Virus record (IMG/VR): IMGVR_UViG_3300020045_004922 | Span: 1 to 63,067 of that record | Length of the DNA stretch: 63,067 nt | Reading direction: 5' to 3' (one strand) | Origin: a virus | Taxonomy: Duplodnaviria > Caudoviricetes | In this document: positions 9,865 through 62,975 of the stretch, one piece after another | Layout of the letters: each line of letters opens with the position of its first letter | Position numbering within the stretch: position 1 is the stretch's first letter | The notes under the pieces: model-generated | The model's input: the letters and a program-made list of their open reading frames with translations, nothing else | Told to the model about the DNA's origin: nothing | Database searches by the model: none | Position numbers and translations under genes: made by a program

Positions 9865-10536
9865 TTATTTTGTAGGTACGCCTACTTTGCCTAGAGCTTT
9901 ATCAATTAGCTTATTAGCATTTTCTCGTAATCCTTTTTGGGCTTCCGGTGTAGCTTGACCAATTGGTGTGATTGGTGATTGTCCATCCCCGTAGAAATCC
10001 TTGTATTCTGTATTGTATAGAGGCAAGACTGTTGCGCTTATTTGCTCATCTGTCATATCTTCGGTTATCTGAACCTTTGACAATGCTACTTCCAATACTT
10101 TTTTATTTGCAGCACCAGATGTTTCAAGCAATTTTCTTGCAGAAGCCAACTTTGCTTCATTTGCAGCCCTTTTTTGAGACTCAATTTCTTTCAACTCTTG
10201 AGCTTCCATTTTTTCACGAATCCTTTTAGCCCACTCTGGTTCATCCAAAAGAGTAGGAGCAGGAGTCGGAGTTGGAGTTGCGATTGGAACAGGAGTAGCT
10301 ATAGGAGCTACAACTGGAGCAGCAACTTTTCTTGAATCAACCTCGCTCTGAATAATTCCTACAAATGGTTCAAAAGCCGTAATCTCTAAAGCAATCTGAG
10401 TGTCAAACTCCGCTTCTTGCGTACCCAGTGCGGTTAGCTTTGCTTCCACAATGTTTACGATTTTTTCAATCGATGCTTCTTTTAACCCGAACTTAGAATA
10501 AGCCGTTCTAACCGAAGTTCTAATTTTTTCTTTCAT
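9865..10536 (-). CDS. Capsid scaffolding protein
   Basis: YSKFGLK N-terminus, Pro/Thr linker, EPEWAK followed by coiled coil; first gene of the head operon. Confidence 0.7.
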   Translation of the reverse strand: MKEKIRTSVRTAYSKFGLKEASIEKIVNIVEAKLTALGTQEAEFDTQIALEITAFEPFVGIIQSEVDSRKVAAPVVAPIATPVPIATPTPTPAPTLLDEPEWAKRIREKMEAQELKEIESQKRAANEAKLASARKLLETSGAANKKVLEVALSKVQITEDMTDEQISATVLPLYNTEYKDFYGDGQSPITPIGQATPEAQKGLRENANKLIDKALGKVGVPTK

Positions 10537-10559
10537 TATGTTTTATTATGAATTTTATG

Positions 10560-10638
10560 CAAAGATACAACATATTTTTTGATTACACAACATTTTTCGT
10601 AAAAAACTTTAAAAATTCAAAAATTTTTCGTACCTTTG
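10560..10638. promoter_or_regulatory. Divergent Bacteroidota-type promoters for head-tail operon and terminase-portal
   Basis: TATCTTTG on - (10560-10567) and TACCTTTG on + (10631-10638) match the TAnnTTTG -7 box. Confidence 0.7.
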
Positions 10639-10660
10639 CATCTGAAACAAAATTAAAAGT

Positions 10661-12301: not shown

Positions 12302-12323
12302 TAAAATATAATAAATAACATAT

Positions 12324-13841
12324 ATGACCCCAAAAGAAATATTATTAAAAGATCCATTTAAAAGAATCAATCCTGATATTACAGGGATGAGTTGGAACAT
12401 CTACGGAGACGATGGTTCGCTTCGTTCGGTAACACCTAGCAATGCTACATATCAAATAGTAACACAAGATGATTTTCTAAGAGAATACGATCCTAGTGGG
12501 CACAAAATTTTTAACAGGTCGTATTACATGGATCGCCTAAAAACCGACGACCAAAAGCGGACATATATTCATTATGTAGAGCGTAATGCATTCGCCTTTC
12601 AATCCGTAATAACTACAAAAAGGCTAACACATCTATGGGGAAATCCAATTAGGTTCACAAACTCTAGCCCAAATCCAACAGCAGCGCAGGATTTTTTAAT
12701 GCGTGACTTCAAGCAGGGCTGGGCTAAGAAAAATATGGAAGAGGGTTTGTTTGCTTGTGGAAAATCAGAAGCAATAACCGGAGATGCTGCAATGTGCTTT
12801 TATTTGAAAGATGGTGTTGTTGGATACAAAACTTTTTCATATCAAAATGGAGAAGTGCTTTATCCACATTATGATAGATTCACCGGAAAGCTAAGTACAT
12901 TCGGTAGGCAATACAAATCTTACGGAAATGATGGAGTAACAGTTGTTAATGAATACTTGGATGTATGGGATGAAAGAAATTTAACAACATACCAAAGAAC
13001 AAATAATTTAAAAACAAAAGTTAAGGCGTTGATTGGACTTGACGGATGGGAATTAGTTGGCGCTCCAAAGCCTCACGGATTTTTAAGAATACCAGTGGCG
13101 TACAAAAGGAACGCTGTAGGAGCTTGCTGGAGTCTTGCCCAAGATTCTATTGACAAATACGAACTGGCCGTTTCTAATCTTAGCGAAAACAATAAGGCTT
13201 ATGCTTTCCGTATATTATTCTTAAAAGGAGAACAGATAAATGCTGTAGCTGGCGGAGATGGTGGAGTGGGGCTTATTACAGGAGATAAAGATTCAGAAGC
13301 TAAGTTTTTAGAAAGAGCTGATGCAAGTGCTTCGTTTGAATTACAGCTAAAAATACTAAGACAAAATATTTTTACCAATTCATTTTCAGTAGAGCCTCCA
13401 GAAGTAAAGGGAGGAGATTTGCCGGGGGTTACAATTAAGTTATTGTACTCGCCAGCCGTGGAAAAAAGCATGGAGGAGAAGGCAGAATGGAACTACTTTA
13501 TAGACGACTGTGTGGCGCTGTTTAAGTACGGATACGGAATGGAAATAAAGAAGATGGCAGAATACGAGTCTCTGGACGTTAGAGGGGAAATAGTGCCTTA
13601 TGTGCACCAAAACTCAATGGAAATTCAAACAATATTAAACGGGGCTGTTACATCTGGCGTATTGTCGAAACAAACGGCTGCTGAAAATGGAGTCTATTCA
13701 AGTAATAATGAGTACGAGAAAATACGGAAAGAAGCAGACGAGAAGGCTATTAAAGATGCTGAAATAAAAGCCACTGAAAATGCCACTAATTTAGCTAGAC
13801 AGGCGGCTGCTGGAAAAGACCCAGAGCCAAGTCAAGTGTAA
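12324..13841 (+). CDS. Portal protein (SPP1 gp6-like)
   Basis: 505 aa following TerL; HLWGNPI, HGFLRIPVAY, LPGVTIKLLY, LSKQTA motifs. Confidence 0.88.
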   Translation: MTPKEILLKDPFKRINPDITGMSWNIYGDDGSLRSVTPSNATYQIVTQDDFLREYDPSGHKIFNRSYYMDRLKTDDQKRTYIHYVERNAFAFQSVITTKRLTHLWGNPIRFTNSSPNPTAAQDFLMRDFKQGWAKKNMEEGLFACGKSEAITGDAAMCFYLKDGVVGYKTFSYQNGEVLYPHYDRFTGKLSTFGRQYKSYGNDGVTVVNEYLDVWDERNLTTYQRTNNLKTKVKALIGLDGWELVGAPKPHGFLRIPVAYKRNAVGACWSLAQDSIDKYELAVSNLSENNKAYAFRILFLKGEQINAVAGGDGGVGLITGDKDSEAKFLERADASASFELQLKILRQNIFTNSFSVEPPEVKGGDLPGVTIKLLYSPAVEKSMEEKAEWNYFIDDCVALFKYGYGMEIKKMAEYESLDVRGEIVPYVHQNSMEIQTILNGAVTSGVLSKQTAAENGVYSSNNEYEKIRKEADEKAIKDAEIKATENATNLARQAAAGKDPEPSQV

Positions 13842-13847
13842 TAAAAC

Positions 13848-13881
13848 AAAACCCCAAGAGTTTTTAATTCTTGGGGTTTTT
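13848..13881. terminator. Bidirectional intrinsic terminator
   Basis: AAAACCCCAAGA-N-TCTTGGGGTTTT between the convergent portal gene and the ncRNA/tRNA unit. Confidence 0.8.
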
Positions 13882-13884
13882 AAA

Positions 13885-14390
13885 TTCAGTCCTCGCATAA
13901 GGAATAATAAGCCGTATTCTAGTTAAAGTCGATAAACCTAGAACGCTATAGTAGGATATTTTTCACTTATTATATTTACACAAACTATCTCATGCCTAAG
14001 AAAAACTTTAAGAACACTAAAGTCTGTAAAGCTCGTTTGCTTCAATCTGATTTTTTTTTCGAACGTGGACACCACATTCCATTTTGCTCAGAACAAATGA
14101 CTTAGACTTGAACGGAGACTTTCTTCCATTTTAAAGTGCAGATATAATGACAAGGCCTACATCAACACCAGCAAACTTACACCGTCCTAAGCTGTTAGGG
14201 GGACGCGGTTAATTACTCCGGATAAACTTAAGCTAACCTTGCACGTAAATTTTATCGGCTTTAAGCACCGATGTGGATTCATTTTCAGAACTCGCTATAT
14301 AAAAGTCCCATTTCTAAAGCGTCCTTTAGTAGATAGTAGTTAATTCTACTCGCCTTTTCGCAATCCTTTCGGAGTTGTGCGGGAAATATT
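13885..14390 (-). ncRNA. Candidate large structured non-coding RNA (~500 nt)
   Basis: No convincing ORF; at least 8 hairpins including a GAAA-capped stem on the - strand; downstream of a tRNA and ends at a terminator. Confidence 0.55.
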
Positions 14391-14392
14391 GT

Positions 14393-14467
14393 TTTAAAAC
14401 AAGCGGAGTCGAACCGCCGAAAACCATACACTCTCGCGCAAGTTATACCCTGACCGCAAAGTTCCCT
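14393..14467 (-). other. Degenerate tRNA-like element (intact T-arm only)
   Basis: GGCGG-TTCGACT-CCGCT T-arm; weak acceptor pairing; no canonical D or anticodon arm. Confidence 0.4.
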
Positions 14468-14473
14468 CGTAAG

Positions 14474-14786: not shown

Positions 14787-14791
14787 ATCAA

Positions 14792-15373: not shown

Positions 15374-15397
15374 AAGTACTTGTGTATAAGTTAGTTA

Positions 15398-17102: not shown

Positions 17103-17969
17103 TTAATTATTCAACATTACTCCATATCCCTTTGCTATCCAAAAAATACTAGACATACCGACGCAACTTCGGCTTCGCAAAAAAGACTTGTACTGTTTTG
17201 AACATTCTCGCTGAGTATATCCGGCGTTTTTATCTGAAATTCGATGGAAATAAGATTCTCCAGCAGCTCCGTATCGACCAGCAATAGCAATACCTATTTT
17301 AACCCAGTCTTGCCTTGACGATGTAATATCAATTCCAGTATCATCCAATCTATCCAAAAGCATTGAAAACCTCCTATCATCATTATCTCCTCCAGAAAAC
17401 GATTTTCGTTCGATTACTGGCATTATATAAACTCCGGTGTATGTTTCCGCATTTAGATTGAAATAAGCGCTCTTGTCGAAGCTATACCCCCTAAGTCGGC
17501 TTAGATTACCGCAAGATCCATCTATTTTTATTCCAACAGACTCCATCATATAGTTTTTAATATGATAGAAGTGCTCTGAAAAGGTAGCTACGTTTGCTAT
17601 TGGTATTAACGCCCAAACTCCATTACCAGAAACTGACTCTCCAATATAAGAGATAAAAGGCAAGACTGTTAGTTTTTGTTTAGCCAATTGCGGTGGCATA
17701 TCATCAATGTCTATGCTAATAAATCCACTTGGCGAAACTAGCTTATCGTTATTCTGCCATGAGAACACTCCGCTTGGAGTTATCGCGTAGAAACTCTCTT
17801 TTAGTTTGTATCTAACTTTTTTGTCAGTGCATAATCTAACTCCCTCGATGTAATGTTGAAGCTCATTGTTAGTTTTAGTAAGCCAGTCATATAAACTTGT
17901 AGTTCTCATAGGACATGGCTTATCAAACCCGCTAAATAAACTTACTTGTACGTCGAGAGAGTTTTTCAT
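17103..17969 (-). CDS. Primase-like protein (BT4734/VirE N-terminal-like + PriCT-2)
   Basis: ITPSGVF...SGFISIDID...SVSGNGVWALI...D.SC.NLSRLR; C-terminal DWVKIGIAI...YFHRIS (PriCT-2-like). Confidence 0.8.
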   Translation of the reverse strand: MKNSLDVQVSLFSGFDKPCPMRTTSLYDWLTKTNNELQHYIEGVRLCTDKKVRYKLKESFYAITPSGVFSWQNNDKLVSPSGFISIDIDDMPPQLAKQKLTVLPFISYIGESVSGNGVWALIPIANVATFSEHFYHIKNYMMESVGIKIDGSCGNLSRLRGYSFDKSAYFNLNAETYTGVYIMPVIERKSFSGGDNDDRRFSMLLDRLDDTGIDITSSRQDWVKIGIAIAGRYGAAGESYFHRISDKNAGYTQRECSKQYKSFLRSRSCVGMSSIFWIAKGYGVMLNN

Positions 17970-19264: not shown

Positions 19265-19270
19265 ATTTGC

Positions 19271-21037: not shown

Positions 21038-21239
21038 GTGTTAGTGGTCTAAAGAAAGTTGTAGTGAATATTTTAGTTTTCTCGGCGGTTCCTATTGTGA
21101 CGTGCTTGTATGGCAATTGGACAGAGGCAAGACTTAGCTGTTTGTAGCTCAAATAGCCGTCTAGCGTGTACCAAATATTTCCGTGGTCATCTAGGATTGA
21201 GTCGGAAGTAAGGATTGTGAATGTTTTGATCAGATGCAC
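21021..21239 (-). CDS. Hypothetical protein
   Basis: 72 aa overlapping both neighbours. Confidence 0.45.
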   Translation of the reverse strand: MHLIKTFTILTSDSILDDHGNIWYTLDGYLSYKQLSLASVQLPYKHVTIGTAEKTKIFTTTFFRPLTHDAKR

Positions 21240-26249: not shown

Positions 26250-27280
26250 CAATAAATCGGAATAATAAAATTATTTCATCATTTATTTTAAAATAGGCAA
26301 GACTGTGTTATTTTGAACCATATATGTTATGGTATGTTAATAAATGTTAAGAAAATAGTAACATACTGATAATAAAGTATATATTATTTTCTTAACATGA
26401 AATTATACCCCTATTTCAATAAGTTTTTCTAGCATTCGGTAGTTACCCTAAATCTGGGTAACTCCTCGTTTTCATGTGACTTTATGAATATTATATGTTT
26501 TCCTCATAGTTTATATATATTAACAAATAAGTATATATATACCAGACAGTTACAGATTATGTTAATAATACATGTTTTATTCTTTTTTCCGGTTAACTTA
26601 TGTATTCTTAATTAATTTATATTTATGATTATATATTATATTGTCTTTTCCACCCCAAACTTTACAAATCATGGATTTAGAATATACAGAATATAGAGCC
26701 TAAAAAAGTTAATAAAAAATTTTTTATAATAAAAAAAATTATACCGCTACCCGATAACGATGCAAATTCTTAAAATTAACATACGGGGGTGTACCCTATT
26801 GATTATCAACTAACTAGACAATTTATAAACACTTTGCGTATTCGTAATAATATATTAGTATAAAAATTTGGTGTTGATTATAAACGTTTTAGTGTTTTTG
26901 TTTATAGTAAATAGGTGTGATATGATATTCTTTGTCAAGTACTCGGATCATTTTACTTGACTCAATCCCCCCAGTCTTACCCTGTTAAGCAAATTAGTGT
27001 ATTAGTGACCTAGTACACTCAATTATGTGATATAAATCACACTTTTGATGAGCGACCGTTCATAACTACGAAAAACTCGTAATACTACGAAACTTTCGTA
27101 ATAGACTATAAGTTAAACATTTACTTCAAACATTACATTTTATTACATTATTAGATAGGATATTAAGGTGCGTTTTATATAGATATTTTCTATAATATAC
27201 CAGATTGATATAGATATTCTCTATGTATATAGTTAATAGTAGTTAAAGTTTATTTCTCACCGCTTGTTTATCCAAATACT
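26250..27280. other. AT-rich non-coding control region (possible origin or packaging region)
   Basis: About 1 kb without ORFs at the point where transcription diverges; several palindromes. Confidence 0.5.
27065..27102. repeat. Tandem 19-bp repeat, each unit palindromic (TACGA-N5-TCGTA)
   Basis: ACTACGAAAAACTCGTAAT / ACTACGAAACTTTCGTAAT. Confidence 0.8.
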
Positions 27281-29201: not shown

Positions 29202-29395
29202 AAAAACATAGTCTTGCCCACTTTTGTGAAATGCGATAACAGGGCAAAAAAACATAGGCTAATAACCTCCAGTGAAATGCTGCAAAGAACTAAAAACATA
29301 GTATAGTTACTTCGGTGCAATGCCGTAATAAACTACCCCGAAAACATAGGCTTACCGCTTCAGTGCGTCCGAAATGGCAATGCTGTAATAGGTTC
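29202..29395 (+). repeat. Array of four ~46-nt structured repeat units (candidate ncRNA)
   Basis: AAAACATAG units at 29202, 29248, 29292 and 29340, each followed by C-T-Y-Y-N-GT-GMAAT-GC-NN-YAA. Confidence 0.75.
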
Positions 29396-41271: not shown

Positions 41272-41967
41272 ATGACAGATCGCGAAAAACAATGGCATCA
41301 AAAAAGGTGCGGAAAAATAACATCAAGCAGTCTTGCCAAACTTCTTACGAAAGGAACAAAAGGTAAATTGTGGGGTGACACCTCAATAAACTACCTCTAC
41401 GAAAAGCTTTATGAGCTAGAAAACAATAAGCCAATTCGCAATGAATCAAACGCTAATTTCCGATGGGGGCATGAACAAGAGCCGCTTGCAATAGAATGGT
41501 TACGCGCTAATACGATGTACGACATTAAGCATTGTTCAGAAGATTTTGATGAAATAAGATTTACTTCCGGCGGAGTTGAAGACTTTGGAGATAGCTTAGA
41601 CTTTTTAGCAGATGATGTAATATTGGGTGAAATAAAGTGTCTGGTATCTCAATCTAAGTTTGCAAAATATAAACGCTGTACTAAGGCAGATGTAGTTGAT
41701 GAATATGCAGAGCAGTTTTTTGGTCATTTTTTAGGGAACCCAGAGTCGGACAGATTGCTATATTTAGTTTATGACGGTCAATCGGACGAAGATGAATTAG
41801 ATACAGTTGATCCACTGGATCCGCGTCGTGGAATATTATTTGAATACTCGCGTGAAGAATTTGACGGTATTGCAGAAGTAGCTAAGGAAAGAATTAGAAC
41901 GGGAATGGCTGCCGTAAGAAGAAGCTTGGAGACTGGAGAAAAAATAGAAACTATACTAAATTCATAA
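41272..41967 (+). CDS. YqaJ/lambda-type exonuclease
   Basis: WHQKRCGKITSS...RWGHEQEPLA...SLDF...EIKC...EY..Q. Confidence 0.85.
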   Translation: MTDREKQWHQKRCGKITSSSLAKLLTKGTKGKLWGDTSINYLYEKLYELENNKPIRNESNANFRWGHEQEPLAIEWLRANTMYDIKHCSEDFDEIRFTSGGVEDFGDSLDFLADDVILGEIKCLVSQSKFAKYKRCTKADVVDEYAEQFFGHFLGNPESDRLLYLVYDGQSDEDELDTVDPLDPRRGILFEYSREEFDGIAEVAKERIRTGMAAVRRSLETGEKIETILNS

Positions 41968-42664: not shown

Positions 42665-44455
42665 ATGCAAAAACAAATAACGCTTATCGGCTTGCGGGTT
42701 GATAATTACAGAATTTTAAAATCAGTACTGCTAACTCCCGATGTACTCTCTCAGCGAGTAACAAGAGTGACCGGAGATATTGGACAAGGTAAATCAACCC
42801 TACTTGATGCATTAAAAATTGGTCTCAACGGAACCGACGCGATAGCCAAAAAAGATGGCTTAGAAAAAGGATTTGTAGCCGAGGTGCAATTAATGGATGG
42901 TGAGCATAAACTTTTCATGGGCGCTAAAGTTACCGAGTATCAACGCGGAGAAAATAAAGGTGAGCCAAAGTTTGAGACTTATCTTTACGAAAAAGACCCC
43001 GATGGAAAGCCATTTCAGCCAATTATAGATGGACGCGCTGCAACTGCTGCTGACTATTCTAAGATGCTGACAACTGAATTGGTGTTTAATATGCCAATGC
43101 TGTTTTCAAGTAACGCTACAGAACATAGGAAGCTTATTGAAAAACTGTTCGCTGATGAGTTATCGAAATTAGGAGTAGCTTCGGTGGTTGAAAAAATAAA
43201 TTCATCTAGAGCCGTGAGGGATAATCGCAGAAGTATTTGTGACGCTAACGGAAGCTTTCTTGACAGCTTTAAAGAAGAAGGATGGGGATTGGAAGATTTG
43301 CAAGCCTTATCTTCGGTTGATGTGAAAACTTTGTCTGAAAAAATAACTGCGCTTGAGGTTGAGAAAGGTGTTGCCAAAACAAGCGTTGAGGATAAAAACA
43401 AGTTAGCCGAAAGTAAGGCTCAGGAAGAAAGAACTGCTCAGTTGCAGAAAATTAAGGATGATGCAGCTAAGGTTGTTGGTAGGATTAGGGTGGTGACAGA
43501 GAAACTTAGTTCTGATTTCGACAAACTGGACAAGGAGTATAATGAAAAACTGGAATCAGCAATTAGATGTACTACTGAAAAGGAAGATGTGTTGGGTATT
43601 ATTACCAACTCAAAATTCGTTTTAGATGTCGATAAGCTATATCTTAGCGATAAAGTATCTGCAATATATAACGGGTTTGTTTCAGACGAAAAAAACTTGG
43701 TTCCAGAAATCGCGCCAGTCTTGCCTAATCTTATTCAAATTGATGAAATGGGAATTCCCGTAATTCCAGAGAATCCAGACAAAGCATATTTAGAATTAGT
43801 TACTGAGCGAACCGAACTTCTTAAAAAGTACCAAGAACTTCACGCGACTCCATTAACTTTCACGAAAATAGAACTTGGCGATACCACTGAAATTGACGAG
43901 AAAATCAAAAAAGCAACCTTAACTCGTGATGCAGGACTTACAACTAATCGTATCTATGAACGTTTCTGGCAGTGGAACAATTGGATGGAAGCTAAGGCGG
44001 AGTACGAAGGCTATGTGAATGAATTGCGCAGACTTTATGCCGGAATAAACACAGGAGTTGAAGGATTAGTAATCACGCCAATTGAATCAGGAAAGTCAGT
44101 TGAAATTTGGCTGCAATATAACGGTGCTTATAATTCAGAGTTTTTTGGGAATGCAAAGAAAGAATTGCGCTTCTTGTTTGATTATAGCGAAACTCAGCGC
44201 GCGATGATTGGTATCATGCTTCAAGCAGCAAGATTAGATTTAAAAGAAAAGTGTTTGAGATTATGCGTTTTAGACTCAGTTCCATTGACAAAACTTGGGG
44301 TTGAGGTTATGACCAAAATTTGCGAAGAAAAAAATGTTCAGTTAATTACTTCTTATACTGACGACCATTATGATTTGGAAAATTTGAGTGGCGGAGAAAT
44401 AGTTGTAGAAGGAGGTGAGGTGTTCTTTGGAGCGAAAGGAGGCTATAATGTTTAA
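42665..44455 (+). CDS. SMC/RecN-like coiled-coil ATPase
   Basis: N-terminal VDNYRILK, Walker A GDIGQGKST, long coiled coil, C-terminal YSETQR and LCVLD. Confidence 0.75.
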   Translation: MQKQITLIGLRVDNYRILKSVLLTPDVLSQRVTRVTGDIGQGKSTLLDALKIGLNGTDAIAKKDGLEKGFVAEVQLMDGEHKLFMGAKVTEYQRGENKGEPKFETYLYEKDPDGKPFQPIIDGRAATAADYSKMLTTELVFNMPMLFSSNATEHRKLIEKLFADELSKLGVASVVEKINSSRAVRDNRRSICDANGSFLDSFKEEGWGLEDLQALSSVDVKTLSEKITALEVEKGVAKTSVEDKNKLAESKAQEERTAQLQKIKDDAAKVVGRIRVVTEKLSSDFDKLDKEYNEKLESAIRCTTEKEDVLGIITNSKFVLDVDKLYLSDKVSAIYNGFVSDEKNLVPEIAPVLPNLIQIDEMGIPVIPENPDKAYLELVTERTELLKKYQELHATPLTFTKIELGDTTEIDEKIKKATLTRDAGLTTNRIYERFWQWNNWMEAKAEYEGYVNELRRLYAGINTGVEGLVITPIESGKSVEIWLQYNGAYNSEFFGNAKKELRFLFDYSETQRAMIGIMLQAARLDLKEKCLRLCVLDSVPLTKLGVEVMTKICEEKNVQLITSYTDDHYDLENLSGGEIVVEGGEVFFGAKGGYNV

Positions 44456-49806: not shown

Positions 49807-50910
49807 ATGCCAAAATTCAAACTTTCATTCGCCTCTCAGCGCGACAAACTTATACTTAAGTTTTTCAAGGACGGGAAACAGTATCGCGCTAAGTCGACTG
49901 GTATCCCATTTAAGTCAATTGATGATGCTGAAAATTCACCCAGTCTTGCCCTAATTCTTTCAAATTACGAAAGCGCATTTACAAAGGCTATTTACGAATA
50001 TGAGATAACCGGAGTTGAGCCAGACTTAGCTGTAGCTCCATTAGAAGTGGAATCTAAACCCGTAATTTCTCCAAAAGAATTTTTTACTAAAGAAAAATGC
50101 AGAATATTTTCTGAGTATTTAGATGCAGAAACTACTTGGGCTGATATTACGGACGGATATATTGAAAACTTTGTCGAAGAAATAAATTCAGACGACTACG
50201 CTGACAATACTATTAAGGCCTACCTAAGAGACGTTCGCGCCACTTTAGATAAATCGGCAAGACATGGTTATAAAATAGCGTCACAAGGCTACAAAAAGCT
50301 GCTGAGCCATAAAGAAGGGACTACTACTTCTATTTTTCTTGACATGAAAGATATTGGGGTGTTGGAAACTCTTAATTGCGAAGATATGCTGGAGGAGGCA
50401 GTTCGAATTACCTTTCTAAAAGCGTGCTACTCTGGTTGCCGTTACTCCGATATTGAGAAGTTGAAGACTGCGGCTATAGTCGATGCAGAATATCATACGA
50501 TAGAAGGCGGTATAGAAAATGTGAGCTCTATAAGTTATGTATCGCAAAAGACTCAAATGGCTACAAGTGTACCACTACATAGTAAACTGAGAGCGCTAAT
50601 AGGAATGGAAATCAAAACACCCAGTGTCGGACAAATGAACCGAATTTTGCCTATCATTTGTCGCAAGGCAGGAATTACTTCTCCGGCAGAAGTTTTCAAA
50701 TGTGGAAAGCAGTTTTACGGTGAAAAATGGGAATTTGTAAGGTCGCATACCGCTCGTAAATCTTTCGCAACAAACCTTTATATTATGGGATGCTCTATTC
50801 GGGACATCGCAAACTATGTAGGTCATAAAAATGAAGCTACTACACTTAAGACTTATATCCGGTGTGGGGCAATATATAATAAATCATTTATTAACGGATT
50901 TTTTGGATAA
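49807..50910 (+). CDS. int: Tyrosine recombinase/integrase (Bacteroidota type)
   Basis: N-terminal arm KSTGI, SAM-like NTIKAYL, catalytic GCRYSD, SQKT, HTARKSFATN, GHK, TYIR. Confidence 0.9.
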   Translation: MPKFKLSFASQRDKLILKFFKDGKQYRAKSTGIPFKSIDDAENSPSLALILSNYESAFTKAIYEYEITGVEPDLAVAPLEVESKPVISPKEFFTKEKCRIFSEYLDAETTWADITDGYIENFVEEINSDDYADNTIKAYLRDVRATLDKSARHGYKIASQGYKKLLSHKEGTTTSIFLDMKDIGVLETLNCEDMLEEAVRITFLKACYSGCRYSDIEKLKTAAIVDAEYHTIEGGIENVSSISYVSQKTQMATSVPLHSKLRALIGMEIKTPSVGQMNRILPIICRKAGITSPAEVFKCGKQFYGEKWEFVRSHTARKSFATNLYIMGCSIRDIANYVGHKNEATTLKTYIRCGAIYNKSFINGFFG

Positions 50911-52511: not shown

Positions 52512-53792
52512 GTGCCTATGAGACAAAAAAGTGCTAGAATTACATACGCAGAACTTGTTTTGGTATGTTCTATGAGGGGAAGCAATGCAGATGCATATAT
52601 TCTTCCTCCAGACAGAAAAAAGTTTATGGTTTCTCTATCAAAAGAAGAGGACGCGATGCTAGATAAGGTTTATCTTGGGTATCCTGTCGCAATATCAAAT
52701 GAAGTAAATCTTTTAAAAGTTTTGCCTGATGGTGGCTTTTTAATATCTGAAAATGATATTGAAAGAATTGTTCCGAAAGACAAGCCGAAAGAGTTGTCAA
52801 AAATAAGTAAGGCTGTCATAATGCCAAAGTCTAAAATTATCATATCAAAAGAAGACAAATCAAAAGACGCGCGAATACAAGAGCTTGAAACTATTCTTGA
52901 CATTAAGCAAAATTCTAACGTTGAGATTTACGATATAACACCAAAGAAATCAGATGGTAAATCGAAACATAGTAGCGTTGCCATTTGCCTATTATCTGAT
53001 GTACATATTGAAGAAGTAGTAGCAAAAGAAACGGTCATTGGACTGAATGAGTTTAATCCGGAGATAGCAAAAGCTAGACTAGATGCATTTTTTACAAATT
53101 CCGCTAAGCTTATATCTCACGACCAGAGATCATACGAGATAAATGAAGTAATAATTGGGTGCTTGGGTGACATTATCGGGAATTGGATTCACGACGAGCT
53201 AATGCAGACTAATTCGATGTCTCCGTTGGCGGCAATATCCTTTGCAAAGTCTTGTATTTTATCTGGGTTGAAATACTGGCACGATACATTAGATGTTGAT
53301 AAAATAACCTTTATTGGTGTTGTCGGTAATCATGGAAGGACTACAAAAAAAAGCCAGTTTGCTAATGCTACGGATGTAAGTATGGAGTACTTTATGTATA
53401 AAGATATTGAAGAAATGGCAAGAGTGCTTGGGCTCCATAAAATAACCTTTATCATTCCAAAGTCTGAAATGGCGATTGTAACAATATTTGACAAAAGACT
53501 TCTATTTACTCACGGAACAAACATTAAATACGGTGGTGGAATTGGCGGGCTTGTAGTTCCTGTGACTAAGTTCTTTTTGAGATTGTCAAAAACATTGCGT
53601 ATCGATATGATGTTTATTGGACACTTTCATCAAATGACATGGAATAAGATGTTCTGTACAAATGGAAGTGTTAAAGGGTTTGACACATACGCATTTGGTA
53701 AAGGGCTTGACTACGAAGCTCCACAGCAGACTAAGCTAGTATTGCATGAGAAGTATGGGTTTACAAGCTATACCCCTATATACTTGGATTAG
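52512..53792 (+). CDS. Calcineurin-like metallophosphoesterase
   Basis: LSDVH, LGDII, VGNHGR, THG, GHFHQ, NGS motifs. Confidence 0.85.
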   Translation: MPMRQKSARITYAELVLVCSMRGSNADAYILPPDRKKFMVSLSKEEDAMLDKVYLGYPVAISNEVNLLKVLPDGGFLISENDIERIVPKDKPKELSKISKAVIMPKSKIIISKEDKSKDARIQELETILDIKQNSNVEIYDITPKKSDGKSKHSSVAICLLSDVHIEEVVAKETVIGLNEFNPEIAKARLDAFFTNSAKLISHDQRSYEINEVIIGCLGDIIGNWIHDELMQTNSMSPLAAISFAKSCILSGLKYWHDTLDVDKITFIGVVGNHGRTTKKSQFANATDVSMEYFMYKDIEEMARVLGLHKITFIIPKSEMAIVTIFDKRLLFTHGTNIKYGGGIGGLVVPVTKFFLRLSKTLRIDMMFIGHFHQMTWNKMFCTNGSVKGFDTYAFGKGLDYEAPQQTKLVLHEKYGFTSYTPIYLD

Positions 53793-53914: not shown

Positions 53915-54544
53915 TTATCTTTTTATTTCAACGTATTTTTCGTAAGTGAAAGTAGTGTTTGGATTTTTTGAAATTACATCTAGTTGAACTCCTTTAACTC
54001 CCCAAGTAATCCATAGGAATTTATGCTTTGGAATTACGGATGGGACTATAGTCAGAGAGTCTTGCCCTGCGTAATAAAGTATGGTTTTGTCTTTGTATGC
54101 ACATCCGGCAACTTGAATAAAGCTATCTTTATAAGTGAAACATGTACTAGAATCAGTTTTAATTGTCGGCGTCGTTATAGCCTGAGACGTATTGGTACTT
54201 ATGTTTGCCACACTAAGAACGTTTTTAAGCTTCAATCCCATGCTTTTGATGGTCTCTACATCCTCACTCCTGTAGCGCTTAAATTCGTCAACTGTGTAAG
54301 TCAGTGAGCCAACTTTAGCGGCTTGTCGTTTAATCACTGTATCTTTCCCTGCGATTACAACTTTTGTATCTGCAACGTAAGAAGTGAAATCCTTATTTAG
54401 AGTCTCGATATTTGAAGTTTTGCGCACATTCTCAGCCTTCTCTTTTCTGAGTTCAGAAGTTAGTAAATAAATTATTCCTGCGCACCCAGCCAAAGCTAGG
54501 ATGTACCAATATTTTTTAAGCAAAGGAATTATTAAGTTTATCAT
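53915..54544 (-). CDS. Membrane-anchored lysis-associated protein (spanin-like candidate)
   Basis: N-terminal TM, coiled coil, C-terminal KHKFLWITWG...SKNPNT; follows the endolysin. Confidence 0.55.
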   Translation of the reverse strand: MINLIIPLLKKYWYILALAGCAGIIYLLTSELRKEKAENVRKTSNIETLNKDFTSYVADTKVVIAGKDTVIKRQAAKVGSLTYTVDEFKRYRSEDVETIKSMGLKLKNVLSVANISTNTSQAITTPTIKTDSSTCFTYKDSFIQVAGCAYKDKTILYYAGQDSLTIVPSVIPKHKFLWITWGVKGVQLDVISKNPNTTFTYEKYVEIKR

Positions 54545-54675: not shown

Positions 54676-55325
54676 TAGAAATATCTTTTACAATTATTTA
54701 ACCTTGCTAGTCTATCTTCAAGTCCGTTATATCCGCCGTTAATTTTGTACGTTATCGCCTTGCAATTATCTTTATCGGCAAGACTGTTCAGATTATGTTT
54801 AGTCCAAAACCATACCGAAGCCATAATGCTCCATTGTGGGAGTTCTAATAGCTCAGGGGTTTTAAGTAATCTATCATCCCCAAAAATAAACTTAGAGCAT
54901 TCTAGGTAATTTGCCTCGCCAGTAACCATTATCGCACCTCTTCCTAAATACTTGCTTCCATCTCCGGTAGATTCATTTCCGTTCCCATTCTGATTAGCGT
55001 AAACAAAATCTGCTATTTCTTTTGGCTTTCTAGCTAATTTTTTAGCTTTTGCTCTTTCATTTGGAGAAATCACCTTATCTTTGTTTACATCAAAGTCTGA
55101 TTTAAAAGTAGATATAAGCCCTTCTTCTGAATAATTTAAATTCTCTCTGTAGGAGTTGAAGTTCTGATTCTCGTGCCCTATTTGCGCCAAATAGTGCGAT
55201 AGTCTTAACGCCGTATCTATTCCGTACTTTGGCAAAATTTGTACTAGCCAAGGAAGATATTTTTCAATATTTTGCGGTGTAATTCCTTTCATACACCCCT
55301 TTAGTTGCAAGTTGTTTATTATCAT
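54675..55325 (-). CDS. Endolysin, glycoside hydrolase family 19
   Basis: LAQIGHE...ENLNYS...YAN.NGNG.E..GDG.KY.GRG.I..TG..NY...INGG.NGL.DR. Confidence 0.92.
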   Translation of the reverse strand: MIINNLQLKGCMKGITPQNIEKYLPWLVQILPKYGIDTALRLSHYLAQIGHENQNFNSYRENLNYSEEGLISTFKSDFDVNKDKVISPNERAKAKKLARKPKEIADFVYANQNGNGNESTGDGSKYLGRGAIMVTGEANYLECSKFIFGDDRLLKTPELLELPQWSIMASVWFWTKHNLNSLADKDNCKAITYKINGGYNGLEDRLARLNNCKRYF

Positions 55326-55361: not shown

Positions 55362-58300
55362 CTACCAATTATCATTCATTGAGTTAGCTATCCAATAGGT
55401 TCCGTCCCAAGTAACTTTTAAAAGCTGACCAAATGTCAACCCCCACGCTGTAACTTCGTTTATTGCATATATTATATTAGTTCCACTCGGTCTAACTACA
55501 ACCCCCTTTTTAGCCCTCTTTATATAAAGTGTATGCCCAATAATAGGCGAAGCAGGCAGATAAACACTTATTCCAGCATCGCTATCATTATTGTAGCAAT
55601 GAATGTTTGAGTCTGAATTTAGAGCCTGATAATTAGCCGTTACTTTTGTCACAGATGAAATTGATCCTCCACCACCAAATACCCAAGCACTTCCATTCCA
55701 AGTTTTAAGTCCAGCTTCAGTTATTTGTTGACCGCAATTTCCTATTCTAGTCTCGTAGCCATAAATATTTGAGTAATATAGGTAGTTATCGTTATCCCAA
55801 TATGAATAAAATCCGTTACGTCCTATTTTTGTTTTGGCTACAACTGAAGATATTGTTATTGTATCAGAACCTCCAAACTTAATATATGTATTTACAGTGT
55901 CGTAAACTCCACTGGTTGTTTTTACATGAAATGAATATGTCCCCGCTGGAAGTCTATAGTACTCTTCATGATAAGATGACCCATGCCCTATCTTTTGATA
56001 GAGCTTTGTTCCAACAGTATCTTCAAAATAAAATTCCCATGTTTCTGGATAATCACCACCCTCAAAAGACGCACCAAATGAATATAATTGAGGTTTAACT
56101 ACTGTAAATTGCTGAGTGTATGCGTGTGAAATAGAGCCATTGTTAGAAATTGCATCCCAAGTATCTTGGTGCGGATACGATGTTATAGTTGGCGTTTTTA
56201 ATTCTACTAACGTCTCTACATCCGTCTCACCAAATTCCATGCTAGAACTAAGCAACGTCTCGCCAAACATTGACAGCCCACCGAATTTTCCACCAATGGC
56301 CTCAATTACACCCTTTAAAGTTAAATTTCCACCACTATCCCACTTCAAATTCCCGAAAGCCTTATGCCCACTTCCGTCTTCTCTGTCAACATAAGCGACT
56401 CCTAATGGCTCTAAAAGTGAACGTAATGCTCCGTCATAAGTTCCTCCACCCCAATCTAAAAGCCCATCTCCTCTCACCCCACTTAACCCCCCAGTGATAT
56501 TTCCATCGATATCCCGCATAAAAAGCAAGTTTGTCAGTAGTAAACCGCCTAAAGCAGAGGTCTCCCCGCTGGATACCGCCTCTGTTATCCAATCAATACC
56601 GTTAATAGTCTTCGAAAGTCTATCGGTTATTGCCTCATTTAGTTTAGCATTTTTAACTGTAATTTCTTGAACTTTTTTTACGTCGTTTTTTATAGCTCCT
56701 AGTGTTGATGCTACCGGAGTATCGGAGAGCGTTACGTCGTAAGTTGGAATGCGTGAAAATCCTTCTTTTATTGTTAAAGATTGAATTATGATATGTTGTG
56801 GTGATTCCTTGCTTGTTCCTATTCCTAAATCTGCATCGTACACCCCCATTAGAGAGCCTTCGTAAATTGAGGAGTAAACAGAACCCCCCAGTCTTGCCAT
56901 CTGTACTTCATCAACGCCAACAGCGTAAGTTACTTTTGGATGATCATTTTTAGCTAAATATGTATTCCCACTATCAAGCAACTTTTGCTCAGCAGCCAAA
57001 ACATAAGCCAATGGCATATTTATATTAAGTAAAACAAAATGCGCCATTCCGCCATAAGAAGGTATTAGGTACCCAGCGCCATTGTCGGAATGATATATTC
57101 CGCTTTTTGGATTTGGAATGTTAAACTTATCATCTTGATTAACATTTAAAGTTAATCTATATTTTGCATTTGGGAATAATAATAATTCAGCAGAGGATGT
57201 CGTAACAACATTAGTTATAGTAAATTCAGTGCCACCCAATCCTGTAGGGCTATCAATTAAACTAAGTATTGCAGTTTCTCCGGCCACTAAATGCTCGTTT
57301 ATATTAAATCCAATGTCTTTAATGAAAACATAGAAGTAAGACTGAGTATCATTAGGCACAATAGAACATGCTATAATTTCATCGACTCTTCCAACAGCAG
57401 TAGAAGAAACTCCTGCGGCGCGAAGTAAATCCCCAGTAATTTCTTTCAAACTAGGAAAAATTGTTTCATCTCTAAATATACCCTCTCTAATTCCGTAAAG
57501 ATTTATTCCAGTTTCCGACTCTATATAGTCATTCGGCCATGGAGTAAAATATGCGGTATTTGTTGGTAAAATTCCGGCAGTCGTAGCGTTTGTACAGTAA
57601 TATCTTTTTGCATCACTATATTTAACTAAATCACCAGCAGAGTACGCTAATCCTAAATCCCATAATCCTTTATTTACCGCATTTACAGTGGCGCCATTTA
57701 TTGAAGCGTAAGAAGGTAGCATTAATTGCTTTTGATATTGAAAATCAGGAGCCACCCTACCAACTCCTTCTCGCTTGTAATTTTCTGGGATATTTCTATC
57801 AGAGCCATAAACTCGAAGCCTTGTAATTATTGACTCTGAATCTACCGCGATTCTATCTATTGAATAAAGTCCATTCCCTTTTCCGTATTCAAAAGTGATT
57901 GGTAGTATTTCACCAACTGAGCCAACTGTTATAGTTTTACCCGTAATTACAAAATTCAACTTCCACTTTTCAGTAGAATTAAATAATGCTAATGCATCCC
58001 AACAACTAATATCAGACCCGCTAATATCAACTTGTTCTGTTACTAAATTTGGAGCTAAATTTATAGTCCATTTTTCGCTTCCAGTATACATTTCGTCAAG
58101 ACATGCTTGTATTCTATCGCGAAGATACGATGCGTCTCCGGTAAACTTTACACTAGAAGTGTTTTCGTAATAGTCGTTTGTCGAACCAGTGATCACATCT
58201 CTGAATTGGCACATCTGCAGCTCAAATGCTTGACTTAAAAACTTTAGTTCATAGGTAAAGGCATCTTGTATAGACTCTGAACTAGATTTCTTTTTTAATG

Positions 58301-58490
58301 TCGGAAGTGGGGATTTGTACAATTTAAAACGCTCATTGCGGTAATCAATATATGAATTTGAAGTGAATGGCAAGACTGTGGGGCTTAGCACAGTACATGA
58401 CACACTCCTTTCACCCATAAACTCACCTTGGTAGGTAAAGTTGCTTTGGGTAAAAATTACTTCGTCTTGAGCGTTTTTAATTTGTAGCAT
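55362..58490 (-). CDS. Tail tip/baseplate hub protein with receptor-binding C-terminus
   Basis: 1042 aa; GEFMGER, FEYGKGNGL...ITRLRVYGS.RN.P; CBM5/12-like WDLGLAYSAGDLVKY insert. Confidence 0.8.
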   Translation of the reverse strand: MLQIKNAQDEVIFTQSNFTYQGEFMGERSVSCTVLSPTVLPFTSNSYIDYRNERFKLYKSPLPTLKKKSSSESIQDAFTYELKFLSQAFELQMCQFRDVITGSTNDYYENTSSVKFTGDASYLRDRIQACLDEMYTGSEKWTINLAPNLVTEQVDISGSDISCWDALALFNSTEKWKLNFVITGKTITVGSVGEILPITFEYGKGNGLYSIDRIAVDSESIITRLRVYGSDRNIPENYKREGVGRVAPDFQYQKQLMLPSYASINGATVNAVNKGLWDLGLAYSAGDLVKYSDAKRYYCTNATTAGILPTNTAYFTPWPNDYIESETGINLYGIREGIFRDETIFPSLKEITGDLLRAAGVSSTAVGRVDEIIACSIVPNDTQSYFYVFIKDIGFNINEHLVAGETAILSLIDSPTGLGGTEFTITNVVTTSSAELLLFPNAKYRLTLNVNQDDKFNIPNPKSGIYHSDNGAGYLIPSYGGMAHFVLLNINMPLAYVLAAEQKLLDSGNTYLAKNDHPKVTYAVGVDEVQMARLGGSVYSSIYEGSLMGVYDADLGIGTSKESPQHIIIQSLTIKEGFSRIPTYDVTLSDTPVASTLGAIKNDVKKVQEITVKNAKLNEAITDRLSKTINGIDWITEAVSSGETSALGGLLLTNLLFMRDIDGNITGGLSGVRGDGLLDWGGGTYDGALRSLLEPLGVAYVDREDGSGHKAFGNLKWDSGGNLTLKGVIEAIGGKFGGLSMFGETLLSSSMEFGETDVETLVELKTPTITSYPHQDTWDAISNNGSISHAYTQQFTVVKPQLYSFGASFEGGDYPETWEFYFEDTVGTKLYQKIGHGSSYHEEYYRLPAGTYSFHVKTTSGVYDTVNTYIKFGGSDTITISSVVAKTKIGRNGFYSYWDNDNYLYYSNIYGYETRIGNCGQQITEAGLKTWNGSAWVFGGGGSISSVTKVTANYQALNSDSNIHCYNNDSDAGISVYLPASPIIGHTLYIKRAKKGVVVRPSGTNIIYAINEVTAWGLTFGQLLKVTWDGTYWIANSMNDNW

Positions 58491-58685
58491 TTATTTTGTT
58501 TTCTTCTTAGTTTTTTTTGACTGTTTAGCTAGAATAAGCCCAATAGACCCTGCAATACTTCCTATATAAATTGCAGTTTCGTTATCTATAACGCCTTTAT
58601 TTACTAAAAATGCTGTAGTAGCTATTACTATACCAAGAACAGATGTTTCCCAGTCCTCTACTAGGAATTGAATAAGTTTTTTCAT
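58491..58685 (-). CDS. Holin candidate
   Basis: 64 aa, two TM segments (WETSVLGIV...GLILAK), basic C-terminus. Confidence 0.6.
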   Translation of the reverse strand: MKKLIQFLVEDWETSVLGIVIATTAFLVNKGVIDNETAIYIGSIAGSIGLILAKQSKKTKKKTK

Positions 58686-58707
58686 TGTGTTTTCTTTTTA
58701 AAATTAA

Positions 58708-61314: not shown

Positions 61315-62975
61315 AATGTTTTCTTGTAATATAAAATTCGTATGTCGTTATCCGCCATTGGTACTAAAGCAAAAGTGGCATTATTATTAGTTTGGTTTAA
61401 TGCGGGGTGTACCATGGCTCCGCCATCGAAGAATATTGATTGTTTTGAAAAATCAAAATCTAAAGGAAGTGTAAATATATTCGTTCCAGTTACAACCCCA
61501 GTTTTTAAATCATATACACCGTCAGTACTTGTTATAATATTTTCTGAAAAATACGCCTTATCTAATTTGTCCAAAATAGACGCTAATGATACGCCTCCTC
61601 CCTTTACTTCTTTTGCATCATTTCCACTTGCCAAGATTATATCGCCGTCTACCGGAGGCGAATAATTCAGATCGATAACAGATGTTCTTATGGCTCGAAC
61701 TGATACCATGTCGCTTTTCGATGTAGGAGAATATGAGTTGCTAGTTCCTGATACCTTCCATGCATTGTTTTGATTATACTCAGTAGATGACCAAAAAAAC
61801 GAAGGCAAGTTTGTTACTCCTGCTGCTATTCTATTTTGGTATAATTTATACATCTCATCCAATGTCCCTAAATACCAATCAGTATAACCTCCGCCATTGT
61901 AATCAGAGCATAATCTAGCAGCATATTGAACAGACGCACCTTGGACACCTACAATTAAATCCGTATTTGCTAAGCCATATCCAATTTCAGTGTGAGATGC
62001 ATTAGTCGTCACATATGAGTTGGCATACCATTGTATCCCAGAATTTTGATCTTCTGTAGCTGCAATTAAGCACTTTTGCTTACCAGCTTCATAACCATGG
62101 TCAGATTCTTGCAGGATGTAGAACACGATACCACCTTCAACCGATTGTCCAATTGTATATGGAGTTACGGACTCTGCTGGTTTAGGTGATATTTTCCCAT
62201 CGTATGTAGCCTTTAACTCCGCTGTAAAATTCGCTGTAAATGCGTCTAGCTTTGCTTTTAATGCGTCCGTAAACCTATTTACATCGTCTACACTTTCATA
62301 AGCTGTTGCAATCTGACTTGCAGACATTACAGCATTTAGAAGGTCAGGGTCTGAAAGTTTTACGTATGTTGCATTAATCCCTAATGTCGTAGCCTTATAC
62401 AGCGCCCATTTAGAATCGCCATCGTCCAATACAAAAACATTTGTAGGGAGTTTTGTAACATTATAAGCATCTCGTGCTGCAATGTCAGCAACTTGAACTT
62501 CACTAAATGATGAAATTATTAAGTCGTAAAGTTTTTTAAGCGTGTCTCCTTCTGTTGAAACTCCATTTTTAAGAGCCGTTATTAAAGATGCAGCAACTCC
62601 GGCTTGCTCGGGGGTAAATCCTAAAACTGGTTCAGCGCCAATATCTGAAGGTTGTGTTGGAACTGTAATGTCTACAGATTTTGAAATTATTGGCAAGACT
62701 GCCCCATTTCTTTTTACTGATTCTATAATATTTACTTGTGCTCCAGCCTCTATGCCACCAACCTTGGATGTCAAGGTAGATATTCCAAGTTCAGAATTAA
62801 TAAGAGTTAGTATTTCTGCAAATGTAGCTTTCTTTGATACTGCATCTTGCACTATCTCTAATTGGTCGGTAGTAAGCACGGAAGTGGCAGCCAATATTTC
62901 TGATATTGTTTTCCCGCTATCAAATGATTCTATTATAGCCCTTAGCTTGGCTTCTTCTGTTGGTGTAAATGCCAT
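61311..62975 (-). CDS. Tail fibre/structural protein with DUF1566-like C-type lectin-fold domain
   Basis: GIEAGAQVNIIESVK; IGQ..EGGIVFY...YNGGGYTDWYL...E...WSSTEY....AW...VRAIR. Confidence 0.75.
   Translation of the reverse strand: MAFTPTEEAKLRAIIESFDSGKTISEILAATSVLTTDQLEIVQDAVSKKATFAEILTLINSELGISTLTSKVGGIEAGAQVNIIESVKRNGAVLPIISKSVDITVPTQPSDIGAEPVLGFTPEQAGVAASLITALKNGVSTEGDTLKKLYDLIISSFSEVQVADIAARDAYNVTKLPTNVFVLDDGDSKWALYKATTLGINATYVKLSDPDLLNAVMSASQIATAYESVDDVNRFTDALKAKLDAFTANFTAELKATYDGKISPKPAESVTPYTIGQSVEGGIVFYILQESDHGYEAGKQKCLIAATEDQNSGIQWYANSYVTTNASHTEIGYGLANTDLIVGVQGASVQYAARLCSDYNGGGYTDWYLGTLDEMYKLYQNRIAAGVTNLPSFFWSSTEYNQNNAWKVSGTSNSYSPTSKSDMVSVRAIRTSVIDLNYSPPVDGDIILASGNDAKEVKGGGVSLASILDKLDKAYFSENIITSTDGVYDLKTGVVTGTNIFTLPLDFDFSKQSIFFDGGAMVHPALNQTNNNATFALVPMADNDIRILYYKKTL

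Follow-up and report, generated by a model that had tools for sequence, protein, structure and literature searches.

Stoperators are described as 20–30 asymmetric sites in the genomes of temperate phages, mostly oriented with transcription and bound by a monomeric repressor that halts elongation in one orientation only (PMC6550527, PMC9283540). Their consensus varies between subclusters along with the regulator (PMC6550527), and the sites are located in promoters and short intergenic spaces (PMC9283540). Nick sites form a second group. In the 46 kb of phage tf, the strict asymmetric word TACTRTGMC occurs 14 times and seldom in near-variant form; its relatives have, at similar positions, a variant that differs by one nucleotide (for which nickase–site co-evolution was proposed), and in tf, T5 and the phiKMV group all nick sites lie on one strand, in tf despite convergent gene sets (PMC3517423). 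Dispersed, oriented, lineage-specific words are known in few phage groups, namely the actinobacteriophages with their stoperators and the phages T5, phiKMV and tf with their nick sites. Here we describe the same signature in uncultured siphoviruses of Bacteroidales type that form a clade related to the LoVEphage-like temperate phages of the gut. The element is the 10-nucleotide (nt) word CAGTCTTGCC, and the genome is IMG/VR record IMGVR_UViG_3300020045_004922 (Duplodnaviria; Caudoviricetes), a single contig of 63,067 bases that was analysed whole and is called the window below.

Bacterial chromosomes offer further points of comparison. Chi, the FtsK-orienting polar sequences (KOPS) and SpoIIIE recognition sequences (SRS), and the architecture-imparting sequences are short, strict, skewed words that lie mostly within genes, and Chi and KOPS are read by the host's RecBCD/AddAB or FtsK. 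Uptake words (uptake signal sequences, USS, and DNA uptake sequences, DUS) are exact words of 9–12 nt that occur at high density, also in phages of competent hosts. We know of no uptake sequence in Bacteroidota and of no phage-encoded reader of the Chi/KOPS type; to our knowledge, the function of phage nick sites is still unknown as well.

Enrichment of the word

A sequence-only reading of the window had listed 16 exact copies of the 9-mer AGTCTTGCC by position, and each of them is present (Table 1), with nine on the plus strand and seven on the minus strand. The same reading put the chance expectation at well under one copy, in agreement with Markov models of order 1–4 (0.32–0.53 copies); at order 5, 1.86 copies are expected. 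Across 100 dinucleotide shuffles, the 9-mer averaged 0.29 copies with a maximum of three, and 16 copies were never reached. The 9-mer extends to the 10-mer CAGTCTTGCC, found in 12 copies versus 0.06–0.09 expected, and the word and its parts are top-ranked among all 8-, 9-, and 10-mers of the window genome. A maximal-order Markov model yields 13.9 expected copies, a figure that is uninformative because its sub-words derive from the motif itself. The enrichment had been held not to be a codon effect, and it persists under codon-aware expectations: within open reading frames (ORFs) there are 10 sense copies versus 0.06–0.10 expected and four antisense copies versus 0.22–0.28 expected. The word is present at 254 copies per Mb, or one per 3.9 kb. 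The additional GGCAAGAC 8-mers reported at 34322, 41052, 46090, and 50256 are also there, as are two AGTCTTACC variants (26973 and 37084). One-mismatch 9-mers number 20 in total in the window, most of them scattered.

Three trivial origins were rejected. Chance is ruled out by the shuffles and by the Markov and codon-phase-aware expectations. An assembly or adapter artefact was dismissed, as the word repeats in independent assemblies and no site in 13 contigs lies <367 nt from a contig end. A codon or peptide effect was likewise discarded, given that two frames and both strands are used and that the word survives a frame change; copies read as SLA are in phase 0 and those read as VLP in phase 2, which bears out the differing frames noted previously.

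Conservation in close relatives and a one-base switch in a sister lineage

Contigs with 84%–96% identical portals share 72%–94% DNA identity with the window over up to 15 kb. One of them, the 29-kb contig G409, covers five window copies: four recur there unaltered at the same place, and one has a single base difference. Over all 13 site-by-relative comparisons, which are not independent of one another, substitutions were found at five of 117 motif positions (4.3%) versus 239 of 1508 positions in the 60-nt flanks (15.8%; Fisher p = 0.00014). A single change shared between relatives accounts for three of the five motif substitutions, and the figures therefore tend, if at all, to understate how much better the motif is conserved. 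On this comparative evidence, the word is inherited and selected at the DNA level.

We scanned the relatives' loci for over-represented words without a preset word, which flagged contigs with a 58% identical portal. The sister contig G406 (48,397 bases, GC content 44.7%, 73% complete) carries 17 copies of CACTCTTGCC versus 0.08 expected, 21 copies of ACTCTTGCC, and no copy of CAGTCTTGCC; the window has 12 copies of CAGTCTTGCC and one of CACTCTTGCC. The part absent from the G406 record probably contains the early region and the primase. Further contigs of the G406 lineage carry the same prefix. The difference between the lineages is G to C at position 3. In both genomes all 10 positions are near-invariant, position 1 is the loosest, and the flanks add weak information only.

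Most copies occupy non-homologous places in the two lineages, with two exceptions. The word in the 1042-amino acid (aa) tail gene (codons 37–46) has a counterpart at the homologous place in G406, one base off register; the peptide encoded there is SPTVLPFT in the window and SPTTLALV in G406, with the DNA word retained. The first gene of the late operon carries a co-oriented copy in both lineages, 530 nt from a promoter-like box, the two copies being 15 codons apart in the protein alignment. These exceptions indicate that selection acts on the presence of the word in a place and not on the protein.

The word was absent from relatives at 52% portal identity (the complete 67-kb genome G407, LoVEphage, and ∼170 other fetched loci), and among ∼75 relatives' loci of at least 13 kb it was found in the two lineages only. 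A helicase query for more relatives of the right arm or early region returned none, and queries with the 1042-aa protein, the primase, and the exonuclease returned only contigs of the same two lineages.

We consider it very probable that CAGTCTTGCC is a phage-lineage-specific DNA-level signal under selection. It would be a cis-acting signal private to the phage lineage and kept at the nucleotide level by selection. Its reader would be strand-specific, would recognize in the sister lineage a word with one base exchanged (CACTCTTGCC), and would have co-diverged with the sites.

A family-wide habit of private words was also entertained and rejected, the top words of LoVEphage, L022, and G407 being of other kinds. 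In LoVEphage (L093, MW660583.1) the top word is ACTATACAT, with nine copies on both strands, seven of them within ∼230 bp (9085–9316); this cluster adjoins the helicase gene and is probably an origin with iterons. In L022 (= G408), positions 1200–16400, AGGCTTAG has 14 copies within 21.5 kb; they share one strand and form clusters of 10-bp tandem units (AGGCTTAGNA) between genes, a kind of repeat that differs from the word studied here. G407 (L099, L100) has 17 copies of TCCGGCAG, 15 of them on one strand and mostly at 47–65 kb in the tail-gene region, an excess that may be a codon or peptide effect.

Orientation and placement of the copies

Of the 16 window copies, 13 point in the direction of their gene block (p = 0.011), as had been read by eye, with exceptions at 17306, 54058, and 56890. 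Intragenic 10-mers have a sense-to-antisense ratio of 8:3 in the window and 13:2 in G406, for a total of 21 sense copies out of 26 (one-sided binomial p = 0.0012). Base composition predicts an antisense bias, because the word is rich in pyrimidines and the coding strand in purines. Under a composition-weighted null, 10 of 14 9-mers are in sense in the window versus 26% expected (p = 0.0005), and 15 of 19 in G406 versus 46% expected (p = 0.004). The sense bias is absent from degenerate variants that differ at positions 1–3.

Copies are found at relative positions 0.04–0.83 inside ORFs. We defined a promoter-like box as an intergenic TAnnTTTG at most 200 nt upstream of a co-oriented ORF, with a consensus from the Bacteroides literature. 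A co-oriented copy lies at most 1 kb downstream of four of 12 boxes in the window and five of eight in G406 (circular-shift p = 0.06 and 0.05, respectively; combined 0.019). A bias toward gene 5′ ends is not significant in the window (four of 10 copies within 150 nt, p = 0.31) and weak in G406 (seven of 15, p = 0.035). Even spacing is weak as well, with coefficients of variation of 0.62 for the window (p = 0.034) and 0.79 for G406 (p = 0.22). A promoter element was rejected as an identity for the word, as copies occur anywhere within genes and not just upstream of them.

Three placements singled out in the sequence-only reading were borne out: copy 26296 is ∼50 nt upstream of a leftward TATCTTTG box (26239–26246), copy 29210 belongs to unit 1 of the array at 29.2 kb, and copy 49942 is within a Phage_integrase-family gene. 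The intergenic copies 26296 (−) and 29210 (+) form the arms of a 23-nt inverted repeat (83% complementary) and face outward around a 2.9-kb control region plus four small ORFs.

The array itself (29203–29400) consists of four ∼45-bp units beginning with AAAACATAG, at 29203, 29249, 29293, and 29341, each then followed by a GTGAAATGC-like box; genome-wide, AAAACATAG has seven copies versus 1.6 expected. Perfect AGTCTTGCC is limited to unit 1, and unit 4 has AGGCTTACC. The array may represent iterons, or an operator-like cluster for the same or another reader. The neighboring stretch 26123–28069 comprises 2 kb without ORFs of at least 45 aa, is AT-rich, and lies between the divergent early blocks. 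It has TATnTTTG boxes on both strands (26239−, 27524+, 27588+, and 27802+) and a 13-pair terminator-like hairpin at 27656–27687 (+), and may encode small RNAs and contain the origin.

Weighing transcriptional and DNA-level readings

Stoperator-like repressor sites and sites for a phage DNA-binding protein had both been suggested from the sequence. Together they make up our leading reading, and a viable one: the orientation with transcription, the one-base variant of the sister lineage, and some promoter-proximal placement speak for them. We would tentatively, and at somewhat less than even chances, take the copies to be stoperator-like polar protein-binding sites acting on transcription. We infer that a protein binds the word, that the phage encodes this protein, and that it acts on transcription. 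In such a mechanism, a monomeric sequence-specific DNA-binding protein would occupy the asymmetric sites and, once bound, would act on the transcribing RNA polymerase in an orientation-dependent manner; the sites would serve as polar roadblocks by which a temperate phage keeps its lytic operons silent or insulated. The likeness to the stoperators of Cluster A mycobacteriophages (L5, Bxb1, TipsytheTRex) extends to the 16–21 dispersed copies per genome, the preference for sense orientation (∼80%), the variant of a sister clade that differs by one base, and the integrase-family gene. The core is 10 bp here versus 13 bp in stoperators, and the hosts are Bacteroidota-type versus Actinobacteria.

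Several observations weigh against the stoperator-like reading. Antisense copies are enriched too, unlike in stoperators (four versus 0.2–0.3 expected per genome, p = 0.0002 and 0.00006), and two relatives carry one of them, copy 17306 of the primase gene, unchanged; neither enrichment nor conservation of antisense copies is what one would expect of a site polar for transcription alone. The orientation itself has two descriptions, with 13 of the 16 copies fitting the direction of transcription and 12 of the 16 fitting the direction away from an origin near 27 kb (the presumed origin region is the 2-kb non-coding stretch at 26.1–28.07 kb); the two are inseparable because gene direction, GC skew, and the presumed origin region coincide. 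Copies lie mostly within called ORFs (14 of 16 in the window and 19 of 21 in G406), none overlaps a recognizable promoter or TAnnTTTG box, and a box-like sequence directly follows a copy in two of 16 cases in the window and in none of 21 in G406. The promoter-proximity result, obtained with the consensus given above, is marginal. No repressor was found: HTH_3 was absent in six-frame searches, a weak method, and a comparison of 20 small early ORFs with Pfam revealed nothing but a DnaA_C protein. Because the copies are mostly within genes and no operator-type copy or repressor was seen, we do not regard the word as a member of the stoperator family.

Enrichment and conservation in both orientations suit a DNA-level enzyme better than a transcription-only site. 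The word could be the recognition site of a phage-encoded site-specific nickase, with packaged DNA carrying localized single-strand interruptions as in tf, T5, and the phiKMV group, an explanation that the sequence-only reading had not raised and that is unlikely in our judgment but credible. As in tf, a strict asymmetric word is present in similar copy number (a 10-mer, with 16 copies in 63 kb), near-variants are few, relatives have a one-base variant, and positions are kept in close relatives. The T5orf172/MUG113 (GIY-YIG-like) protein encoded at 25511–26122, with its homing-endonuclease-like PHROG matches, is a further point in favor of a nickase. However, the one-strand rule of tf, T5/BF23, and the phiKMV group is broken, with nine plus and seven minus copies in the window and nine forward and eight reverse in G406, and the strand of the copies follows gene direction. 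The T5orf172 gene was not found in G406 or G409, both of which are incomplete, by a search that also missed the window's own copy.

The alternative description of the orientation, relative to replication, brings in a phage-private polar signal of DNA metabolism. Such a Chi/KOPS-like signal would be read by a phage helicase, nuclease, or replication machinery, and would mark DNA as self or direct recombination or priming relative to forks; we judge this distinctly improbable. The word does resemble Chi/KOPS words, and E. coli Chi in particular, in being short, strict, mostly intragenic, and strand-skewed (∼80%), in its density of about one per 4 kb, and in its small changes between lineages. 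The strand switch at the non-coding 26–28 kb of the window, and the convergence at ∼25–31 kb in G406, are as for replichores. A SbcC-like ATPase and a phrog_284 exonuclease are present in both motif lineages and were not found in G407, although this co-occurrence amounts to two lineages with the motif versus one complete genome without it. Unlike Chi and KOPS, which belong to bacterial chromosomes, the word showed no enrichment in the 707 Bacteroidota genomes surveyed (see below), and a signal of this type would therefore need a phage-encoded reader. No RecB-, AddA-, or FtsK-like protein was recognized in the window, no such phage reader is known to us, and the two operon-start copies at non-homologous codons point to transcription units rather than forks.

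Sense bias is also expected of an operon polarity suppressor (ops)-like recruitment or pause signal on the non-template strand, recognized by a NusG-family or other elongation factor of host or phage and keeping long phage operons transcribed. The strict single-block word and the copies at most 1 kb from operon starts and then every few kb fit such a signal, and a host factor active at few host loci would suit the low counts in host genomes. We nevertheless rate it as very improbable: a NusG NGN domain was not found in four phage records, in a weak six-frame search, and antisense copies are enriched and conserved. An ops-like or a private Chi/KOPS-like signal would make the word a self-identity mark, written and read by the phage lineage itself, a broader notion to which we give limited credence. 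In its Chi/KOPS version, the readers would possibly be the lineage-specific SbcC-like ATPase, exonuclease, and helicase module.

Finally, the word might act in RNA, as a 10-nt seed target in mRNA for a small RNA; for example, a plus-strand transcript over 26296–26304 would carry the complement GGCAAGACTG. Sense bias and strict 10-nt identity agree with this, as does the 2-kb control region with its promoter-like boxes and terminator-like hairpin. No known RNA family besides tRNA was found in the window, however, antisense copies are enriched and conserved, and no conserved antisense copy is common to both lineages; we consider an RNA-level signal extremely unlikely.

Occurrence of the word in host genomes

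A host Chi/KOPS-like site adopted by the phage was another suggestion of the sequence-only reading, and it found no backing among the 707 Bacteroidota genomes surveyed, which are samples of their groups. Five genomes with distant prophage relatives contain 11–82 copies of the 9-mer (maximum about 20 per Mb). The largest 9-mer count among those listed for 401 Bacteroidales species genomes was 57, and neither version of the 10-mer exceeded 38 copies in any of 301 Bacteroidota genomes. These counts are of the same order as those of a reversed-word control. Where the excess over this control was greatest, in three genomes, copies are scattered at ∼15–18 per Mb and are not clustered.

As none of the 707 genomes is rich in the word, it is not a borrowed Chi or uptake word of a searched host, and a host word is unlikely. 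Uptake words are, moreover, far commoner in the host genome than the word studied here is anywhere. That the phages accumulated a word (Chi, uptake sequence, or KOPS) of an unsampled host genome could be argued from the GC content of the two lineages (36% versus 45%): it differs, so they probably have different hosts, each of which could impose a slightly different word. Yet the searched genomes are ∼12 times less dense in the word than the phage and near the reversed-word control, and related phages of other Bacteroidales (LoVEphage, G407, and the ∼170 loci) lack it. We attach almost no probability to this explanation.

Candidate readers

The two motif lineages have in common several genes that were not found in the complete G407, namely the SbcC-like ATPase (42647–44455), the phrog_284 exonuclease (52512–53792), and some small ORFs. 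Searches of the PDB with the sequences of the ATPase and the exonuclease returned nothing. A defense-system identity of the 602-aa ATPase was set aside, the matches being weak and confined to the Walker A region.

Both lineages also encode a protein with a Bac_DnaA_C domain (Table 1; E = 6e-15 in G406, where its gene lies between the helicase and the SbcC-like gene). The domain was not found in G407 (100% complete), G408, or G409. As a monomer, domain IV of DnaA recognizes an asymmetric 9-mer, and the word might be bound by a phage DNA-binding protein without polar action (initiator-like, partition, or genome-organizing), of which the DnaA_C protein would be an example. Its presence in the two motif genomes and the four-unit AAAACATAG array that opens with a perfect motif copy are in keeping with this idea. 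The sense bias is left unexplained by it, and the two DnaA_C proteins are too divergent for a one-base difference in motif: they share 29% identity over 55 residues, lie in differing genomic modules, and have KRDHSSCHH (window) versus GGRTTVMYL (G406) in the stretch aligned with the recognition helix. For these reasons the DnaA_C protein was judged unlikely as the reader, and a binder without polar action seems quite improbable overall.

The Asp-His-Ser/His residues kept in the window DnaA_C protein are contacts to the DnaA box, and the protein therefore more likely binds DnaA boxes; it may target those of the host. In the window, DnaA boxes are unclustered (27 matches with at most one mismatch versus 18.5 expected). 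The 92-aa protein has 12 homologue clusters in metagenomes (74%–97% identical) and, used singly or as an alignment, no match in IMG/VR.

Six-frame searches for a sigma70_r2 domain and for T5orf172 and HNH domains were empty as well. Such results are weak because the method missed the window's own T5orf172 domain (PF10544), which hmmscan finds in the 25511–26122 protein (E = 2e-9).

Genome organization and likely host

The window has a CheckV completeness of 96% and a GC content of ∼36%. A tape-measure ORF runs off the left end; with the ends joined, it closes after 1463 codons at wrapped coordinate 63033, 58 nt ahead of the start of the next tail gene. Because this ORF closes across the joined ends, the window behaves like a permuted genome that is closed and has no terminal repeat. 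The record begins with CTTGCC (1–6) and ends with AGTCAAAA (63056–63067); joined, the ends would give AGTCAAAACTTGCC, two motif halves with AAAA between them, which is probably a coincidence.

Gene content is arranged in five blocks of alternating direction (Table 1). The closest named relatives of the portal belong to Bacteroides phage LoVEphage and temperate Bacteroides and Phocaeicola phages (42% identity), and relatives at 37%–40% identity sit in Dysgonomonas, Prevotella, and Segatella genomes. Going by these portal relatives, the host is probably a member of Bacteroidales. A temperate life style fits the integrase-family gene and the presence of portal relatives within bacterial chromosomes. 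Megablast of the window against a phage collection gave no match.

Many small early ORFs share a start context. ATTATGAAAACAA and ATTATGAAAGCAAAAAC are repeated at ORF starts (e.g., 27844, 28358, 29704, 28834, 29963, and 30397), ATGAAAACA has 12 copies versus 1.6–2.6 expected in the window, and the common context gives N-terminal MKT or MKA in many of these ORFs.

Table 1. Copies of the word, related sites, and gene blocks in the window (sense and antisense are relative to the gene named; L and G numbers denote contigs of relatives)
Feature	Position	Strand or direction	Location or content	Nearby box or state in relatives
CAGTCTTGCC	10022..10030	-	Sense; first gene of leftward late operon (ORF 9865-10536)	530 nt downstream of TATCTTTG box 10560-10567; exact in L001, G409, L011
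GAGTCTTGCC	13131..13139	+	Sense; portal gene	AGTCTaGCC in L002, L003, G409
CAGTCTTGCC	17306..17314	+	Antisense; primase gene (17103-17969)	Exact in L001 and G409 despite 18-20% flank divergence
CAGTCTTGCC	17659..17667	-	Sense; primase gene	Exact in G409; AGcCTTGCC in L001
AAGTCTTGCC	21126..21134	-	Sense; ORF 21021-21239	593 nt downstream of TATCTTTG box 21727-21734; exact in G409
CAGTCTTGCC	26296..26304	-	Intergenic; left edge of 2-kb non-coding control region	
TAGTCTTGCC	29210..29218	+	Intergenic; first unit of AAAACATAG array	~600 nt downstream of TATCTTTG box 28607-28614
CAGTCTTGCC	35093..35101	+	Gap between plus-strand genes 34720-35007 and 35416-35790	TATCTTTA comes 2 nt after
CAGTCTTGCC	41329..41337	+	Sense; YqaJ-like exonuclease gene	
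CAGTCTTGCC	43717..43725	+	Sense; SbcC-like ATPase gene	
CAGTCTTGCC	49942..49950	+	Sense; integrase-family gene	
GAGTCTTGCC	54058..54066	+	Antisense; DUF6549 gene	
CAGTCTTGCC	54777..54785	-	Sense; GH19-like lysin gene	
CAGTCTTGCC	56890..56898	+	Antisense; 1042-aa tail gene	
CAGTCTTGCC	58369..58377	-	Sense; codons 37-40 of 1042-aa tail gene	
CAGTCTTGCC	62692..62700	-	Sense; 554-aa tail gene	cGTCTTGCC in G409
Decayed copy AGCCTTGCC	6068..6076	-		Exact AGTCTTGCC in L011 and G409
CACTCTTGCC, version of the sister lineage, sole copy in window	53417..53425	-	Antisense	
92-aa stand-alone DnaA C-terminal helix-turn-helix protein	32805-33083	+	Bac_DnaA_C, E 2.7e-10	
Block 1	1-10536	Leftward	Head and tail genes including tape measure (PF20155)	
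Block 2	10661-13841	Rightward	Large terminase, SPP1-type portal	
Block 3	14792-26122	Leftward	tRNA-Met, BT4734-like/PriCT-2 primase, D5-like helicase, T5orf172/MUG113 protein	
Block 4, part 1	28070-53792	Rightward	Many small ORFs, YqaJ-like exonuclease, SbcC-like ATPase, DEAD/ResIII helicase	
Block 4, part 2	28070-53792	Rightward	Integrase-family recombinase, methyltransferase fragment, phrog_284 exonuclease	
Block 5	53915-62975	Leftward	DUF6549, GH19-like lysin, three large tail proteins	

Implications

No account of such a word in phages of Bacteroidales turned up in the literature searches. Among the matches listed for CAGTCTTGCC or its complement in published texts, titles and the starts of abstracts pointed to primers or to unrelated or eukaryotic contexts, and the stoperator literature, among the matches listed, concerns actinobacteriophages except for one Citrobacter phage announcement.

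A natural specificity switch separates the sister lineages, and the CAGTCTTGCC/CACTCTTGCC pair offers a direct route to the reader: a protein, nick, pause, or RNA end that tracks CAGTCTTGCC versus CACTCTTGCC by lineage would be the reader or its product. Words of the type NNNTCTTGCC are the pattern in which further specificity variants would be sought. Should the word be a self-identity mark, it would tell phage DNA or transcripts from those of the host and of the sister lineage, and the one-base switch would be a specificity barrier. Should both strands prove to carry nick sites, or the word to be a polar signal private to the phage, a new rule for such systems would follow. If instead the copies are polar roadblocks, stoperator-type immunity would extend to another bacterial phylum.

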